A DNA stretch of 64,000 nt from a virus, in IMG/VR virus record IMGVR_UViG_3300045988_085380, positions 96,001-160,000 of that record. One strand, 5' to 3'. Made by a program: the position numbers and the translations under genes. The notes below the pieces were generated by a model that saw only the letters and a program-made list of their open reading frames with translations, searched no databases and was not told the origin of the DNA. Of the stretch, positions 5,037 through 52,616 are shown piece after piece (position 1 is the first letter of the stretch; each line of letters begins with the position of its first letter).

Positions 5037-5951
5037 TTAATATTCAATTCGTTTATTCTTTAATCTACGTTCTTGTAGAAGATGTTCCTTTTCATAGTAA
5101 GATAACATACGTTCTACTTCTTTTCTAAGATAAGGTAGATGATAAACAGTCATATTGTCATTATGATCAAAATGTACTAATACTAAGTCTTCTATACTAA
5201 AATCAGGATTATATGATTCAATTATATAAGCATAAGTACTAAGCTGAAGACAATAATGATAATAATTACAATCATCTAAATTATTTAGAGGAAACTTCAT
5301 CTTAACAGAACTTCTTACTTTGGAATCAAAATAGCTCTTAGTATCAATCTTCTTATTCGTTTTCCAGTCTCCGATTATGATAGAATTTCCTTTTTTAACT
5401 AATAAATCAATCTGACCTGCAATATGTAATTTACCAGATGGAGAATCCCAATGAATTAAATACTCAGGATATACTGCATTCTCCAAATCTAAAGTTGTTC
5501 TATCTTTTTGACATTCAAATTTACCTCCTATTTGATATTTATCTAGAGTAATATTCTTTTTCTTGGTGTAAAAGGAATTCTCTAATCCTGCATGTATTTT
5601 AGTACCTCTTTCACAAGACCTTCTATTCTCCTCATCCCAAGAATCTAATATTTCTTGCTGTGCTTTATTAAAATCTAACTCTGTAATATTATGTAACTCT
5701 AACAGAACAGGATCAAATTTCTTAGTATTTAAAAGAGATTTCTTCTCAATCTTAAATTCATCAGCAGGTAATAATTTTTCTAAGGCTTTATACGCTGACC
5801 AAAATTCTTTATCAAATGGCTGACCAAATTGCTCAATCATAGTAGTTACAGAAGTAAACTTAATAGAAGGATCATTAATATCCCAATAACGATGAGCTTT
5901 CTCATTAAAAACTACTGTTCCATTTTGTTTATCAATACTTAAATTTTCCAT
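5037..5951 (-). CDS. PD-(D/E)XK (RecB/Cas4-like) nuclease
   Basis: Motifs GTKIHAGLE, GQIDLLVKKGNSIIIGDWKTNKK, YCLQLSTYAYI (D...D/ExK...QxxxY). Confidence 0.6.
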   Translation of the reverse strand: MENLSIDKQNGTVVFNEKAHRYWDINDPSIKFTSVTTMIEQFGQPFDKEFWSAYKALEKLLPADEFKIEKKSLLNTKKFDPVLLELHNITELDFNKAQQEILDSWDEENRRSCERGTKIHAGLENSFYTKKKNITLDKYQIGGKFECQKDRTTLDLENAVYPEYLIHWDSPSGKLHIAGQIDLLVKKGNSIIIGDWKTNKKIDTKSYFDSKVRSSVKMKFPLNNLDDCNYYHYCLQLSTYAYIIESYNPDFSIEDLVLVHFDHNDNMTVYHLPYLRKEVERMLSYYEKEHLLQERRLKNKRIEY

Positions 5952-6074
5952 ATAACATTAACATTTTACATTTATTTTATATTTATCTAAACTAATTTTT
6001 AACTTTTCAATAATAATATATAATTAGGTGTATAACAAATTAATTAGTAATATAAACTCTTAAATTTAATTAAA

Positions 6075-7713: not shown

Positions 7714-8008
7714 TTATTATTCTTATATCATTATCATATATACTAGTGTGTGTATAACCAGTTTGCCTATTGACATAATGATGTAAAATTACACTACTAG
7801 TATCATCTACATTATCATCTATTACATAGTTCTTTTTAATTATGTAATCTAAATAATTCTCAGCCTCTTTTAAATCCCCCTCATAATCCTCTTGGAAAAG
7901 AATTTGTATTTTACTATCTAATTTAGACTTTTTCAACTTTTTAAGTTTCTTTTCTAAATTGGTTGTTTTTAAAAGCTTGTCATTTAGTTTATAAATTGCA
8001 ATAATCAT
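7688..8008 (-). CDS. hypothetical protein
   Basis: Intact ORF 26 nt downstream of the suppressor tRNA. Confidence 0.55.
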   Translation of the reverse strand: MIIAIYKLNDKLLKTTNLEKKLKKLKKSKLDSKIQILFQEDYEGDLKEAENYLDYIIKKNYVIDDNVDDTSSVILHHYVNRQTGYTHTSIYDNDIRIINEGYEQVD

Positions 8009-8034
8009 AATACATATCTTTTATAATTAAATTG

Positions 8035-8106
8035 TTCTCTCACAAGGATTCGAACCCTGACTAAAAGATTTAGAGTCTTCTGTGCTAACCATTACACCAT
8101 AAGAGA
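8035..8106 (-). tRNA. amber suppressor tRNA, anticodon CUA, Gln-type body
   Basis: Cloverleaf TCTCTTA-TG-GTGT-AATGGTTA-GCAC-A-GAAGA-CTCTAAA-TCTTT-TAGT-CAGGG-TTCGAAT-CCTTG-TGAGAGA-A. D-arm and T-loop match the phage tRNA-Gln(UUG) at 18775. Confidence 0.85.
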
Positions 8107-8150
8107 ATATTAGCTAGTTATCAAAACTAGCTAAATGTGTATTTAAGTTA

Positions 8151-8549
8151 TTAGTTAAATTTAACTAATTGCTCATTTAAGTATTTAGTTTTATCTGTAA
8201 TGAATTGTCGTGCATGCGCTTTAAAATAAGAAACAGCAGAACGTACAGATTCAATATTTTCTGAATCCAAACAATTCTGAATTCTTTGTAAACCATCATT
8301 ACCAATCTTCTCACAAATGTCTACAAATAATTCATCATCCAAACCATTTAGAAAATCTGTAAACTTCTCTACTTCAGATTGTACTGGATTGGTGTATTTA
8401 ACACTAAGTTCAAAACCATTATCTGAACTATTCATTGAAATATCTAAACCATTTTTATTAAATTTATAATCTTTATTATTTTCAGAAGCTTTCATAAGCT
8501 CTTGAAATTCTTCATTTGTCATTATTCCTTCTAATAAGTTTTCAACCAT
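8151..8549 (-). CDS. hypothetical protein
   Basis: Intact 132-aa ORF; first gene of the minus-strand unit. Confidence 0.55.
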   Translation of the reverse strand: MVENLLEGIMTNEEFQELMKASENNKDYKFNKNGLDISMNSSDNGFELSVKYTNPVQSEVEKFTDFLNGLDDELFVDICEKIGNDGLQRIQNCLDSENIESVRSAVSYFKAHARQFITDKTKYLNEQLVKFN

Positions 8550-11943: not shown

Positions 11944-12446
11944 GCGGATAACACAATCGAGACGGAGACAAGGTGGCGCTGGCATGGGAGAGTGGTTTTT
12001 ACTACTTTCCCATTACAAGTCAATTTTCAAACATTGGTGGCATAAGTAACTCACACTTTAATGTTTTCTTGAGATATAAACTATAGTCATAATTAAATCA
12101 GAATTAAAAACCTTTTAGTGTATAGGTTAACTAATAATATGATGTAACTTCAAAATTAAAAAACCACCTTAGTATATAGCTAAATAGTAGAACGGGTGTT
12201 TATCCTTTTATAGGTTTGTACTAGGCAGTATTTAGCGCGTCGTAACACATTGAAAGTATTACTGGTAGAACTAAAGTATTAAAAAGACTTTAGAAGTAAG
12301 AAAGCGTAAAGACAGTTAGTAGAGGGGATAGTAAGTGTTGAAGAACTCTACATTATTTATTAAGCAATAACCTCGGTGCTTAAAGAGAGGCTTCCCTTAA
12401 ACAAGGAGTAAGAGAAATTGTTTAGTCAGCCAGGAGACGTTAAAAT

Positions 12447-12507
12447 TCATACTGATGAGACTGGACGAAATACCTAGTAACAGTTGTACGTTATTAGGTA
12501 TCTATGA
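12447..12507 (+). ncRNA. hammerhead-like core (type I topology) with defective stem II
   Basis: TCATA-CTGATGA-GACTGGAC-GAAA-TACCTA...TAGGTA-TC-TATGA. Stems I and III pair; stem II cannot form. Confidence 0.2.
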
Positions 12508-17948: not shown

Positions 17949-18038
17949 ATACGGATGCCTGAGTGGTCGAAAGGGTAGGTCTCCAAAACCTATAGAGACG
18001 AAAGTTGAACAGCGTAGGTTCGAATCCTACTCCGTGTG
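17949..18038 (+). tRNA. class II (long variable arm) tRNA with anticodon CCA; isotype uncertain
   Basis: ATACGGA-TG-CCTG-AGTGGTCGA-AAGG-G-TAGGT-CTCCAAA-ACCTA-(21-nt variable region)-GTAGG-TTCGAAT-CCTAC-TCCGTGT-G. Confidence 0.6.
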
Positions 18039-18253
18039 CAAATAAAAGGTGAAGTTGGGGTATCTTAGGATAGAATGAGCCTATAAGTCTTCAATGAGTC
18101 TAGTTAAATAAACTAGGCTCTACTCCCTGGCGTCATTTAAATCAGCTCTCTAAGCTTTAAGGTGAAGCACGAACCTTTTAAGTTCGGGAAGACAGGTCAG
18201 TACTGTCAGGAAGCACTCTGTATTTTATAAAAGTTAGAAGATTAACTTTATAA

Positions 18254-19796: not shown

Positions 19797-19916
19797 ATGA
19801 AGAAAATAGTATTAAAAGTAACAGTGAAAGTTCCAGATGATTATGTACTAGATGATCCATCTTGGTTATTAGAGAACATTGGTATTGGATATGACTATGA
19901 TGTTGAACGTATTTAA
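19797..19916 (+). CDS. small hypothetical protein (39 aa)
   Basis: ATG 1 nt after the upstream stop; followed by a terminator. Confidence 0.35.
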   Translation: MKKIVLKVTVKVPDDYVLDDPSWLLENIGIGYDYDVERI

Positions 19917-19973
19917 TTTGTTTAAATCATTATACAATAAAGACGACATGTTGGTATTTACAAAAATATTGTT

Positions 19974-20007
19974 GGCAACTAGCAGATAATTAGTTGCTCC
20001 TTTTTTT
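19974..20007 (+). terminator. intrinsic terminator
   Basis: GGCAACTA-gcagataat-TAGTTGCTCC followed by TTTTTTT. Confidence 0.75.
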
Positions 20008-20061
20008 GTCTAAAGGTTGGCAGTATATTCCACCAGACATTAAACTCTAAAACTGCCAAAT

Positions 20062-20717
20062 CGCTTAGTGGTGAAACTGGGATACACGAGGGACTTATTA
20101 GAGTACCAGTAATGGTGAATTTGAGTGCCCTATGAGAAATCATAGGAGTAGAATCTCCCTAATTAAACAAGTTAATTGTAATTATATTAGATTTTTATAG
20201 TATAATCTATTAGCTTGCAACAGAAGCCTCACTTATGGTGACATAAGTTTTGGTGACGGCGAACTAAATTAAATAAAATAAGAGTGAGGGGCAACAGACA
20301 TACCTCTTAATGTATCGGTGGAGTGGCGAAGACAATAGGCATATTGTAGACTCTTATTTTGTTTATAAATGGCGTAGAGACTATATAGGAGATACCTAAG
20401 TTAGGAATTGTATATTTAAAATTAAACTGGCAAGATTCGCAGAAATAAGGGGAGCAGACTGCTATTAGAGGTTAGATTAAACCTTATATACTTACTTGCA
20501 AGATTTCTAATATGGTAGTAAAATAGTCCAGACCACAATAACTTATATGGGAGGTATTTCACAATAATTATTACTAAATGTGTTAAGTACTGTAACTCCA
20601 TGCTAGCGTTGAGTGTAATAGGTAGGACGTAAATAAGTTAGCTTGTGTAAAAGCAAGTGTGGTAGGAAAATCCCTTGGTCAGGAATGACCGTACGGGTTC
20701 GAATCCCGTCTAAGCGA
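20062..20717 (+). tRNA. tRNA-Leu(UAA) split by a group I intron (exons 20062..20096 and 20667..20717)
   Basis: Spliced sequence: CGCTTAG-TG-GTGA-AACTGGGAT-ACAC-G-AGGGA-CTT|AAAA-TCCCT-TGGTCAGGAATGACCGT-ACGGG-TTCGAAT-CCCGT-CTAAGCG-A. Perfect 7-bp acceptor stem; class II variable arm. Confidence 0.85.
20097..20666 (+). ncRNA. group I intron (IC3-like core), ORF-less, 570 nt
   Basis: Inserted between U34 and A35. The exon U pairs with an intron G (ACTT/GAGT P1) and the intron ends in G. GTAGAGACTA (20374-83) and ACCTAAG (20394-400) match the Azoarcus/Anabaena tRNA-intron core as I recall it. GAAA-capped hairpin CCTATGA-gaaa-TCATAGG. Confidence 0.75.
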
Positions 20718-20834
20718 CATAATTGATTATCTATGTTTTTTTGAAATTGAAATTATTCATAATTACTGTGAATTTGTGAAAATTTATAAGTAATGTAAAA
20801 TTTTCGTTTTGTAGAAGATTTTATCTTTCATTTT

Positions 20835-20868
20835 AAACTCATATTGCTTGTGAAAGTAGTATGAGTTT
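20835..20868 (+). promoter_or_regulatory. conserved-loop hairpin upstream of the recoded gene 20954
   Basis: AAACTCATA-ttgcttgtgaaagtag-TATGAGTTT. Confidence 0.45.
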
Positions 20869-20953
20869 TAATTTATTTGTAATTTCTATGTCATAGACTT
20901 ATAATAAATAAGTGATTAATCAATTAAAAATAATAACTTAAATATTAATATTT

Positions 20954-49264: not shown

Positions 49265-49307
49265 TAAGTTAGCATATTAGTAAAAAATATTATTATAAGT
49301 GCCAGTA

Positions 49308-50582
49308 ATGCACGATTTATTTGAGCCTATCTCTCGAGATGAAAGGCAGGCTCAAGCACTTAAAGCTTGGATTAAAGCTAAAGGACACGGGACTATTGTA
49401 GGATGCACTGGTTTTGGTAAGACTTGGGTAGCTATGAATGCTATAACTAAATTACGATCAAAATATCCTACAATGTCAGTACTAGTGGTAGTACCTTTTG
49501 ATAACTTAAAAGAACAATGGTCTAAAGAACTTGACGAGAGAGGTTTGGGATTTAATACTGATGTAAGAGTAATGATGGGAGCATCTAAAAAGGAATGGTC
49601 TTGTGATTTACTAATTATTGATGAAGCCCATAAAATCAATAGTGAAGTTCTTAGTAATGTTCTTACAAATACTAAGTTTAAATTGATACTTGGTTTAACT
49701 GCTACTTTTGAAAGACTGGATGGAAGACATGAAATTTTAGCTAAATATGCTCCAGTTGTAGACACTATAACTATGGAGGATGCTCTCTTTAATGGGTGGG
49801 TAGCTAAATATAAAGACTATGTAGTTGTTATTGATGTCCTCGATATTGATGTTTATCAGAGATATAATAAAGAATTTAATGAACACTTTGAATTCTTTCA
49901 ATGGGACTTCAACAAGGTTATGTCTATGACAGGTAAAAATGGTTTTACTAATAGATGGCAATATTGTAAGGATACCTATCCTGATGATTATGCTATGCAA
50001 AAGGACTATTTAAAATCTGTCACATTTCATGCTATGGGTTTTATGAAAACTATGCAGTCTAGAAAGAAGTTTGTACAAAATCATCCTGAAAAAATAAGAA
50101 TAGCTAAAGAGATAATTAAGTACAGAAGTGATAAGAAGATTGTTACTTTTAATGCTAATACCACTATGGCTGAAGCATATAAAGAGGGATATGTTTATAC
50201 TGGTAAAGAAGGTAAAAAGAAGAATAGAATAACACTAGAAGAGTTCTCTAAAATGCCCAGCGGAATATTAAACAGCTGCAAGATGGCAATTGAAGGTTTA
50301 AATGTACCTGATTTATCAGTAGGTATACAAACTGGTATAGATAGTAGTAAAACTAAAGCTGTACAGTCTCTTGGAAGAGTAGTACGATTAGCAAAGGGTA
50401 AACTAGGTGCTGAATTTTTTACATTAGTAATTAATGATACTGTAGAAACTAAATGGATGCAAAATGCCAAAAAGGATTCTAGGATTGAAATTATTGATGT
50501 AGAGAATTTAATGCACGTTCTTAAAGGAGAGCCATACGAGCTTTATAAAAGAAAGATTAAGAATTTTACATTTAGGTTTTAA
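49308..50582 (+). CDS. superfamily 2 DNA helicase (DEAH box)
   Basis: GCTGFGKT (motif I), LIIDEAHK (II), GLTATF (III), QSLGRVVR (VI). Confidence 0.8.
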   Translation: MHDLFEPISRDERQAQALKAWIKAKGHGTIVGCTGFGKTWVAMNAITKLRSKYPTMSVLVVVPFDNLKEQWSKELDERGLGFNTDVRVMMGASKKEWSCDLLIIDEAHKINSEVLSNVLTNTKFKLILGLTATFERLDGRHEILAKYAPVVDTITMEDALFNGWVAKYKDYVVVIDVLDIDVYQRYNKEFNEHFEFFQWDFNKVMSMTGKNGFTNRWQYCKDTYPDDYAMQKDYLKSVTFHAMGFMKTMQSRKKFVQNHPEKIRIAKEIIKYRSDKKIVTFNANTTMAEAYKEGYVYTGKEGKKKNRITLEEFSKMPSGILNSCKMAIEGLNVPDLSVGIQTGIDSSKTKAVQSLGRVVRLAKGKLGAEFFTLVINDTVETKWMQNAKKDSRIEIIDVENLMHVLKGEPYELYKRKIKNFTFRF

Positions 50583-51482: not shown

Positions 51483-52616
51483 ATGGCAGAGAAAATTAGT
51501 GGTTTAGAGGAATTCTTTCAATTAGTTAAAGAAGGAAGAGAAGGACACAATATAGGACTTAGTACAGGTTCACCTAAGTTAGACTTATATACTGATGGAG
51601 TTCTTCCAGGTACCTCTTATTTAATAGGAGGTGCTTCAGGCAGTGGTAAATCTACCTGGGCACTCTGGACTTATGTATATCAACCATTAATACATTATTT
51701 AAATGGGGATAGTCCAGAAAGAGACCCTAGATGGTTATTATTCTCACTAGAGATGACTCGTAGTCAAGTATATGCTAAATTAGTTAGTATGTACATATTT
51801 GACAATTATGGAGTTGAATTGCGATTTAAGCAGATATTCTCTAGAGGAAAGGACTGCGTATTGTCTGATGAAGAATATGAACTCTTAGTTAAGAGTTCTG
51901 AATTTATCAAAATTCTTGATGAAAGATTATCTTTTTATGAAGGTAGTCTTACAGAAGCAGTTTATTTAAAGGAGGTAAATGAGGAATTATTGAAATGGGG
52001 TAAATTTGAGAATGGTAAATACATTCCAAATAATCCTAACATGTTTCTAGGTATTATGATTGACCATATGACCTTGGTAAAGGCAAGTGGCGGTCGAACT
52101 AAGAAAGATGAAATTGATGCAATTTCTAGAGATTCTGTTCAAATCAGAAATAATACTAAAATTGTATCTCCTATAATGATTTCTCAGTTTAATAGAAATG
52201 CTAATGGTCAAGAGAGAATGAAACAAGGTCTACAAGACCCGTCTATGGAGGACTATAAAGACAGTGGAGCATTACTTGAGGATTCACAAGTAGCTATAGG
52301 TTTATTTAGTCCACATAAATATAAATTATCTACTTATAAGAAATATAATATCAAGATACTAGAGCAGTGTTTTATTGGTGTATTTATCTTAAAGAGTAGA
52401 TTTGGTTCTTCTGACTTAATGATTCCTACTGGTTTTTATGGTGATTGTAGTCATTATGCAGATTTACCTAAACCTGAGAACATATTTGACTGGGAGAAAT
52501 ATACTAGTCCTAATTATTTATTAGAAGATGGTGTTCAGCAATTAAATGTTGAACTTAATAATATAGATGAGCCAAAAGAAATAGATAATAATTCAAATCT
52601 TTCATTTATATTATAA
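51483..52616 (+). CDS. DnaB-like replicative helicase (RecA-type C-terminal domain)
   Basis: Walker A GGASGSGKST; IMIDHMTLV; QFNR. Confidence 0.7.
   Translation: MAEKISGLEEFFQLVKEGREGHNIGLSTGSPKLDLYTDGVLPGTSYLIGGASGSGKSTWALWTYVYQPLIHYLNGDSPERDPRWLLFSLEMTRSQVYAKLVSMYIFDNYGVELRFKQIFSRGKDCVLSDEEYELLVKSSEFIKILDERLSFYEGSLTEAVYLKEVNEELLKWGKFENGKYIPNNPNMFLGIMIDHMTLVKASGGRTKKDEIDAISRDSVQIRNNTKIVSPIMISQFNRNANGQERMKQGLQDPSMEDYKDSGALLEDSQVAIGLFSPHKYKLSTYKKYNIKILEQCFIGVFILKSRFGSSDLMIPTGFYGDCSHYADLPKPENIFDWEKYTSPNYLLEDGVQQLNVELNNIDEPKEIDNNSNLSFIL

Follow-up and report, generated by a model that had tools for sequence, protein, structure and literature searches.

A 64,000-nucleotide (nt) stretch of viral DNA (positions 96,001 to 160,000 of the IMG/VR record IMGVR_UViG_3300045988_085380; hereafter, the window) encodes a phage tRNA-Leu(UAA) whose gene is interrupted within the anticodon loop, between U34 and A35, by 570 nt that very likely constitute a group I intron with an IC3-like layout. 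Because direct model searches miss the window copy, this intron is assigned to group I through comparative structure and through a compact relative. The finding is a new lineage within a known kind of element, not a new kind of element.

The split tRNA-Leu(UAA) gene and the structure of its intron

When introns were allowed, ARAGORN detected a single split gene in the window; it called this gene as tRNA-Leu(taa) at 20062-20718 and placed a 570-nt intron behind the first base of the anticodon. By default, ARAGORN reported nothing at 20062-20717, and neither did Rfam, both listing 13 tRNAs and a transfer-messenger RNA (tmRNA) in the window. In the intron-aware prediction, exon 1 (20062-20096; this gene and all elements of its intron are on the + strand) comprises the acceptor 5' strand, the D-arm, the anticodon stem 5' strand AGGGA, and C32, U33 and U34, whereas exon 2 (20667-20717) contributes A35, A36, A37 and A38, the anticodon stem 3' strand, a long variable arm, the T-arm, the acceptor 3' strand and the discriminator A. 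Joined, the two segments (20062-20096 and 20667-20717) form a perfect 86-nt class II cloverleaf, as recognized by ARAGORN, with the anticodon stem AGGGA/TCCCT, the loop CTTAAAA (CUUAAAA in the RNA), the variable arm GGTCA-GGAA-TGACC and the discriminator A; CCA is not encoded. This result bears out the initial annotation of the locus, which was made from the sequence alone and read it as a tRNA-Leu(UAA) gene split at U34/A35, the insertion site of the classical lineage, by a 570-nt insert. The predicted ligated junction is ...GGGACUU/AAAAUCCC... (here and below, a slash in a splice-site sequence marks the junction), and the window allele is distinguished by the exon polymorphisms CGCTTAGTGGTGAAACTGGGATA... 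and ...GGTCAGGAATGACCGTACGG....

The intron (20097-20666) ends with a G (omega-G) at 20666. Because the intron and exon 2 both start with A, both boundaries can be shifted by 1 nt on the sequence alone; judged against group I rules, only the U(-1)/omega-G choice is in agreement. The intron contains no open reading frame (ORF) of note: the longest stop-free run in any frame, with read-through of TAG or TGA included, is 71 codons, the sole listed ORF is a 59-amino-acid antisense frame, and no endonuclease ORF was found inside the intron, in line with what had initially been claimed. The neighboring ORFs gave no endonuclease match either, and the two upstream ORFs had no informative family match. 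The G+C content is 31-32% in the intron and 31% in the window. TTA is the commonest Leu codon in the window ORFs (39.5% of Leu codons), and no second tRNA-Leu was found in the window. The split gene is not a chance arrangement, since dozens of independent contigs contain the same split gene with a homologous intron. A terminator-like hairpin with a T-run (GGCAACTAGCAGATAATTAGTTGCTCCTTTTTTT; 19973-20012, + strand), located about 50 nt upstream of this gene, is conserved in related contigs, so that the split tRNA-Leu gene may be its own transcription unit.

The fold of the intron was assessed on an alignment of 22 distinct family cores, with the hairpin tips trimmed, by scoring a hand-drawn P1-P10 structure. 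The family copies consist of conserved blocks with hairpin tips varying in length and sequence between them. Standard pairs were found in 93.8% of the cells compared with 34.5-42.5% when the partners were slid by 1 to 3 columns, 43 of the 93 pairs change on both sides, and the covariation score was 0.309 (slid controls, 0.04-0.07); none of these measures was attained in any of 500 shuffles. The 16 helices are colinear with P1-P10, and compensatory changes back P2, an extra hairpin denoted P3.1, P5a, P6, distal P8, P9.0, P9a, P9b and P10.

At the 5' splice site, P1 (20093-20126) is formed by the exon sequence ACUU (20093-20096) and the guide GAGU (20123-20126), with the wobble pair U20096-G20123 at the splice site; P1 is paired in 100% of the cells and the U-G pair is present in 21 of the 22 sequences. 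The P1 loop holds a small hairpin, ACCA-GUAA-UGGU (20105-20116), and a second GAGU (20101-20104) occurs in the window copy only. The P10 guide UUU (20120-20122) pairs with A20667-A20669 of exon 2, and these U-A pairs become A-U exactly in the tRNA-Lys hosts, where the 3' exon starts with UUAAU, which amounts to a compensatory change. P2 (CCUAUGA-GAAA-UCAUAGG, 20129-20146), found in both the alignment and the minimum-free-energy fold, changes on both sides in six of its seven pairs around an invariant GAAA loop. The P3 5' strand AUCUCC (20153-20158), which pairs with GGAGAU at 20388-20393, was named through the alignment of the compact relative, locus L025, to the Rfam group I intron model RF00028 (Intron_gpI); it is invariant and complementary in 22 of 22 sequences. 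The P3.1 hairpin (20168-20217; stem CAAGUUAAU/AUUAGCUUG), located at the boundary of J3/4 and P4, is 97% paired with four compensatory pairs, and is missing from L021, L025 and the copies in Lak megaphages. The P4/P5/P5a region (20218-20261) includes P4 (20218-20222 with 20257-20261), P5 (20226-20228 with 20252-20254) and, inside these, P5a (ACUUAUG-GUGA-CAUAAGU, 20231-20248). The register of P4 is set by compensatory variants in the relatives, namely, CGUUA/UGACG in L007, CGACA/UGUCG in L011 and CGGUG/CGCCG in L025. P6 (20271-20364) consists of a 15-base-pair stem (20271-20285 with 20350-20364), present in the minimum-free-energy fold, and a long distal extension; all 10 scored pairs change on both sides.

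J6/7 and the P7 5' strand (GUAGAGACUAU, 20374-20384), identified by sequence and by the RF00028 consensus via L025, are invariant across the family. In P7, with the partner strand AUAGUCC, the pair G20377-C20529 is followed by the bulged A20378 and then by the pairs from G20379-C20528 through U20384-A20523, G20379-C20528 being the presumed guanosine-binding pair. GUAGAGACUA and AAAAUAGUCC align to the RF00028 consensus via L025, which is evidence for the guanosine site at the sequence level only. The P3 3' strand GGAGAU (20388-20393), closing the P3/P7 pseudoknot, directly follows the P7 5' strand, and therefore, there is no P7.1 or P7.2. P8 (20394-20516) is formed by ACC/GGU and UUAGGAAU/AUUUCUAA with a long distal extension, its distal part being 100% paired, with compensatory changes in six of eight pairs. 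Within P8, CCUAAG (20395-20400) and UAUGG (20511-20515) make up what we take to be the sequence of the 11-nt GAAA-tetraloop receptor. J8/7 and the P7 3' strand (AGUAAAAUAGUCC, 20517-20529) precede the P9 domain (20532-20663), which is also present in the minimum-free-energy fold and consists of P9.0 (ACCACA/UGUGGU, 20532-20537 with 20658-20663), P9a (AACUUA/UAAGUU, 20540-20545 with 20634-20639, carrying an 88-nt insert) and P9b (CUUGU-GUAAAA-GCAAG, 20642-20657), all three showing compensatory changes. P9.0 stops 3 nt before G20666, and all family members end with ...GTRGYARG (R, purine; Y, pyrimidine) ahead of the 3' exon.

Thus, the layout of the window copy is of the IC3 type, with P2 present, P5 as a simple hairpin with a GNRA loop, and neither P5abc nor P7.1/P7.2. 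The initial proposal of a group I intron is upheld by the covariation across P1-P10, the canonical J6/7-P7 and J8/7-P7' elements, the U-G pair, the terminal G and transitive homology to known introns (see below). The motifs it cited are all present, including GTAGAGACTA (20374-20383), ACCTAAG (20394-20400), GCGAACTAAAT (20259-20269) and the GAAA-capped hairpin (20129-20146). The label J6/7-P7 was correct, ACCTAAG turned out to be the 5' half of the putative tetraloop receptor in P8, and the assignment of GCGAACTAAAT to J3/4 had to be rejected because this segment lies in the P4 3' strand and the entry to P6, the classical 'Q' region. The remark that the intron is about twice the usual length also holds (570 nt compared with 220-310 nt for most cyanobacterial introns), the extra length being accounted for by hairpin extensions in the P1 loop, J3/4, P6, P8 and P9.

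Relatives, homology to known introns and competing explanations

A blastn search against GenBank phages identified homologous introns in IAS virus, in cr116_1 and, unannotated, in Lak megaphages. In IAS virus and cr116_1, both crAss-like phages, the intron lies between two annotated 'DNA primase' coding sequence halves. Two exact-pattern scans of IMG/VR yielded 34 family loci and one scan of metagenome contigs, mostly human-gut assemblies, yielded 56 further loci, bringing the family to more than 80 copies. As determined by joining the exons, most copies reside in tRNA-Leu(UAA) at the same position, with other hosts being tRNA-Lys(UUU) (two IMG/VR loci and one metagenome locus) and tRNA-Thr(UGU), in which the compact 214-nt relative L025 is found. 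Several copies interrupt primase genes in the exon context ACTT/AAAAT, a nine-base sequence identical to that in the anticodon loop of tRNA-Leu, and removal of the intron at U/...G/ restores uninterrupted primase ORFs of 330 codons in IAS virus and 343 codons in cr116_1. Furthermore, ordinary tRNA-Leu genes that lack the intron contain the predicted ligated sequence CACGAGGGACTTAAAATCCCTTG in at least 120 viral loci, and one of these, L199, is an intron-free allele at a syntenic locus, its upstream sequence being the same as that of the window.

Different segments of the window intron have different closest relatives. The segment 20120-20170 (P1-P3) matches the primase introns of IAS virus and L012 with 100% identity, and the segment 20204-20545 (P4-P8) matches L033, which resides in a different, intact tRNA-Leu, with 97.7% identity; the segment 20493-20664, including the whole P9a insert, is 92% identical to the IAS virus primase intron, whereas the P9 insert of L033 differs. 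By these comparisons, the window copy is a mosaic, and because its segments match different lineages, tRNA-resident and primase-resident copies must have exchanged modules recently.

Several additional features were noticed in the relatives. In cr116_1, an HNH endonuclease gene lies just downstream of the primase and its product may act in trans, the candidate target DNA containing ACTTAAAAT; a further partial group I core (L004:6073-6148; 39 bits with the cyanobacterial model R1, described below) was found just downstream of an 'intron-encoded endonuclease' coding sequence, at the end of the locus. The tRNA-Leu(UAA) genes of the Lak megaphages (L002:1154-1888 in Lak-C1 and L003:1153-1896 in Lak-B1) each contain two group I introns. 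One, of 308-309 nt, is in the D-loop (L002:1174-1481; RF00028, 41.8 bits, E = 3.5e-9; U/...G/ boundaries), and the other, of 340-348 nt, is in the anticodon loop and belongs to the same family as the window intron; the middle exon is only 15 nt long, and removal of both introns yields a perfect tRNA-Leu(UAA). To our knowledge, a group I intron in a tRNA D-loop has not been reported previously. Many of the copies (L016, L017, L018, L019, L020, L023, L027, L029 and L031) carry a tRNA-like module inside P9 (ATATGGCGGAATTGGTATACGGCAG...GAGGGTTCGAATCCCTTTAT), which the window copy lacks, and a free-standing copy of this module is found in L178 right after an intron-free tRNA-Leu. A possible tRNA within a tRNA intron has been mentioned in the Lak preprint (10.1101/356790). 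In the tRNA array of the 95-kb IMG/VR contig L025, two further tRNA genes are split (5636-5957 and 7886-8174): one, called by ARAGORN as tRNA-Ile(UAU), contains a group I intron of 228 nt that the classical tRNA-Leu model scored at 48.5 bits, and the second is the tRNA-Thr(UGU) with the 214-nt compact relative.

The compact relative links the family to known group I introns. When RF00028 was run on narrower stretches, scores were obtained for the Lak D-loop intron and L025 only, the latter reaching 43.6 bits (E = 5e-10), which is under the gathering score of 50 but spans all 253 model positions. A covariance model that we built from 22 cyanobacterial tRNA-Leu(UAA) intron cores (R1) scored 152 bits on an Anabaena locus outside the training set, 62.7 bits on the tRNA-Leu(UAA) intron of a Cytophagales bacterium (L059), and 44.5 bits (E = 7e-11) on L025. 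In the opposite direction, the nhmmer profile of the phage family alignment matched L025 with 66.5 bits (E = 5e-20), and L025 shares the 23-nt P7-P3'-P8 core of the family. The same profile matched the Cytophagales intron with E = 1e-10, and matched Anabaena and Nostoc weakly (E = 0.001-0.01 in a 46-kb search). The P7'-P9.0 segment of the Cytophagales intron (L059:1-230; metagenome-assembled genome, JAAFKE010000040), ATAGTCCAGACCACAAA, matches the phage family, which hints at an origin of the phage lineage from tRNA-Leu genes of the host phylum. When a 16-base pattern from the phage core, AGAGACTNNANNGGAGNTACC, was scanned in bacterial contigs with one genome per species, about 100 cyanobacterial tRNA-Leu(UAA) introns were among the matches listed; these matches, mostly from cyanobacteria, do not bear on the absence of the family from bacteria. 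Because a pattern from the phage core retrieves cyanobacterial tRNA-Leu introns, the P7-P3'-P8 layout is common to the phage family and the classical lineage.

A number of observations weigh against the group I assignment. The RF00028 search recommended together with the initial annotation did not detect the window copy, either at the gathering score across the whole window or at E <= 10 across 19900-20900, and left the 340-nt Lak version unmatched as well. With filters off, R1 gave the window copy only 3.7 bits (E = 0.93) and the wrong P3 partner, and no match in the window was obtained with an nhmmer profile built from 87 cyanobacterial tRNA-Leu introns, chosen from 97 extracted introns for their length of 200-330 nt. 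In the structure itself, the P4 pairs of the window copy are C-G, A-C, A-G, C-G and A-C, that is, two of five are Watson-Crick, making this P4 the weakest in the family. Finally, P3, P7 and proximal P8 are complementary everywhere and never vary, so that covariation is silent on the pseudoknot; such invariance is expected because the pattern used to collect the family covered exactly these elements. There was also no Intron_gpI match when the first four relatives were searched together.

The lack of a direct covariance-model match could be taken to indicate that the insert is a different kind of element, such as a group II intron, an archaeal-type bulge-helix-bulge intron or a non-splicing insertion. 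We disfavor this possibility as highly improbable: the group II boundaries GUGYG...AY are missing and there is no domain V match; the helices backed by covariation are colinear with P1-P10; the canonical GUAGAGACUA and AAUAGUCC are present; the compact relative fits RF00028 over the full length of the model; and excision at the U/G boundaries restores the primase ORFs. It is less far-fetched, albeit still rather improbable, that the window copy is a decaying group I intron that has lost self-splicing, leaving a tRNA-Leu(UAA) pseudogene or a very low yield of the tRNA. The poor P4, compared with three to five standard P4 pairs in the relatives, and the failure of both covariance models to recognize the window copy are compatible with decay, and the intron is dispensable, since related phages have intron-free alleles. 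However, both exons are intact and form a perfect cloverleaf; every other helix, the guide, the P7 pocket and the terminal G are intact; and the segment 20204-20545 is nearly identical to that of L033, which resides in another intact tRNA-Leu. In addition, an alternative P4 register of four base pairs (U20215-C20218 with G20259-A20262) is on offer, one that competes with the P3.1 hairpin, and this gene is the sole tRNA-Leu found in the window, the most used Leu codon of which is TTA.

Somewhat likelier than decay, but in our estimate still unlikely, is that this is a true group I ribozyme that requires a phage or host protein cofactor for folding, in which case splicing and the supply of tRNA-Leu(UAA) would be conditional. 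Protein-assisted splicing of group I introns is well established elsewhere, CYT-18 being an example, and the low G+C content of the intron, its four long peripheral extensions and the weak P4 are in keeping with such a dependence, as is the minimum-free-energy fold of the precursor, in which the peripheral hairpins are recovered and none of the long-range core helices are. Conversely, we found no candidate for such a cofactor, neither upstream ORF having an informative family match, and the GAAA tetraloop together with the 11-nt receptor sequence suggests self-stabilization of the RNA.

Predicted splicing, possible mobility and other features of the window

The split gene, the covariation-backed fold, the chain of homology, the intron-free alleles and the restored primase ORFs are all shown by the sequences; under the group I assignment that we favor, we infer that the intron is catalytic, when splicing takes place and how the intron moves. 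In the predicted pathway, which follows the established group I mechanism, the pre-tRNA would fold such that the exon sequence ACUU is held on the intron guide GAGU (P1) with the U-G pair at the splice site, free guanosine would dock at the P7 pair G20379-C20528 and attack the 5' splice site, and G20666 would then occupy the same pocket, while UUU at 20120-20122 would hold the start of exon 2 (P10). Ligation of the exons would produce the 86-nt tRNA-Leu(UAA), still requiring CCA addition, and the spliced tRNA would read TTA, the commonest Leu codon of the phage.

The intron has no endonuclease gene of its own, and apparently it is maintained and disseminated through recombination among phages that infect the same cell, which, at the level of sequence, is demonstrated as a route of change by the mosaic window copy. 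Additional spread may occur through reverse splicing or through endonucleases acting in trans at sites that fit the 9-nt guide, ACUU/AAAAU. The family has been seen in the anticodon loops of tRNA-Leu(UAA), tRNA-Lys(UUU) and tRNA-Thr(UGU), and in primase mRNA codons of Crassvirales (ACUU/AAAAU). Tentatively, then, this endonuclease-free lineage might move between unrelated genes wherever the RNA fits its guide, a possibility that we consider open to considerable doubt. If it did, the family would be among the clearest natural cases of ectopic group I intron spread by reverse splicing, module shuffling between copies in co-infecting gut phages would follow, and the 'enigmatic' tRNA introns of Lak megaphages would be explained. 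An ORF-less intron that is found both in tRNAs and in an essential primase gene, with one guide-matching sequence and modules recombined between copies, offers a testable system for studying the arrival of group I introns at new sites in the absence of a homing endonuclease.

The finding also has implications for annotation. At least one widespread tRNA intron family of gut phages is very likely bona fide group I at the classical tRNA-Leu site, and standard annotation is blind to it: default tRNA finders skip the gene and the Rfam model misses the intron. Because default tools miss both the split gene and its intron, the tRNA repertoires of phages, and hence inferences on codon use, are probably undercounted.

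To place the window phage, 19 kb were compared with GenBank phages by megablast, and no useful match was obtained. The intron-bearing contig OLYV01000018 is a Zeta-group crAss-like phage in which TAG is read as Gln (tables of Yutin et al.), and has only short patches in common with the window. Because the window encodes a tRNA with a CUA anticodon (8034-8106, - strand; 'Pyl' in ARAGORN), that is, an amber suppressor, the window phage is suggested to decode TAG as sense, a reading that has been reported in Lak and Zeta crAss-like phages. Other features of the window include a RAGATH-1 hammerhead ribozyme (12423-12507, + strand; 70.6 bits, gathering score 56.3), with a similar patch in the Zeta crAss-like contig L279; a phage-encoded tmRNA (30716-31049, + strand; Rfam, 50.4 bits, gathering score 47), for which ARAGORN predicts the tag peptide GEVNNTSVSYAIAA; and a 91-nt tRNA-Trp(CCA) (17949-18039, + strand), the variable region of which, about 21 nt, is unusually long for Trp and could conceal a short insert. 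Two ORFs have partial matches to helicase profiles, namely, 49299-50582 (+ strand; positions 277-604 of 986 of the DNA helicase profile phrog_16) and 51483-52616 (+ strand; positions 315-584 of 621 of the DnaB-like helicase profile phrog_19). These two ORFs could be pieces of split genes; R1, with which no other group I core was identified in the whole window, detected none between them.

Comparison with known introns

Group I introns are well known in phages, for instance, in td, nrdB and sunY of T4, and these introns (IA2) are self-splicing and phage-borne like the window intron. Unlike the latter, the T4-type introns reside in protein-coding genes, are of the IA type with P7.1/P7.2, and usually contain homing endonuclease genes. 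Indeed, according to a 2014 review, every phage intron then known was in a protein-coding gene, despite the many tRNA genes of phages (PMC3984707), and our literature search, the coverage of which was incomplete, found no paper assigning a phage tRNA intron to group I. In crAss-like phages, group I introns have been described in the primase and other genes, where they were found through endonuclease domains (Yutin et al. 2021; PMC7886860). The family copies in crAss-like primase genes (IAS virus, NC_049978; cr116_1, NC_055882) differ from those endonuclease-based detections in having no ORF. They belong to the same family as the window intron and have the same flanks, ACTT/AAAAT, but their host is protein-coding and their excision restores a reading frame; furthermore, the P4-P8 region of the window copy follows the tRNA-resident lineage, unlike the primase introns.

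Introns in the tRNA genes of gut phages are not unprecedented, contrary to the initial impression. The Lak megaphages, gut phages that infect Prevotella and read TAG as sense, were reported to have 'enigmatic' introns in tRNA-Phe, Gly, Thr and Tyr, not in tRNA-Leu, to which Rfam gave no class (Devoto et al.; 10.1101/356790). Compared with that preprint, a class, group I, is now assigned, the tRNA-Leu(UAA) of Lak-C1 and Lak-B1 containing a 340-348-nt member of the window family as one of its two introns.

The IC3 intron of the Azoarcus tRNA-Ile resembles the window intron in its compact IC3 core, the GAAA loop of P2, the CCUAAG...UAUGG receptor in P8, and GUAGAGACUA in J6/7-P7. It differs in the host tRNA and insertion site, in being about 205 nt long and G+C-rich, and in the absence of peripheral extensions.

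There is also a correspondence with the cyanobacterial tRNA-Leu(UAA) introns, which occupy the identical site (CUU/...g/AAAA), an insertion of the classical 'Leu.3Ug' type in the survey of Williams 2020, where group I introns were found to split many bacterial tRNAs. As in the window intron, with the core of which theirs is colinear, there is a P2 with a GAAA loop, P3, P4-P6 and a P9.0 located just before the terminal G; the motif AGAGACU-N2-A-N2-GGAG-N-UACC spans P7-P3'-P8; and there is no P5abc, no P7.1/P7.2 and no ORF. In contrast, the cyanobacterial introns have no significant primary-sequence match to the window intron, which is distinguished by its 570-nt length, the extra J3/4 hairpin and the long extensions of P6, P8 and P9, and its family is found in phage genomes and also in other host genes. 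Sequence comparison thus places the window lineage apart from the cyanobacterial one and possibly nearer to the tRNA-Leu introns of Bacteroidota.

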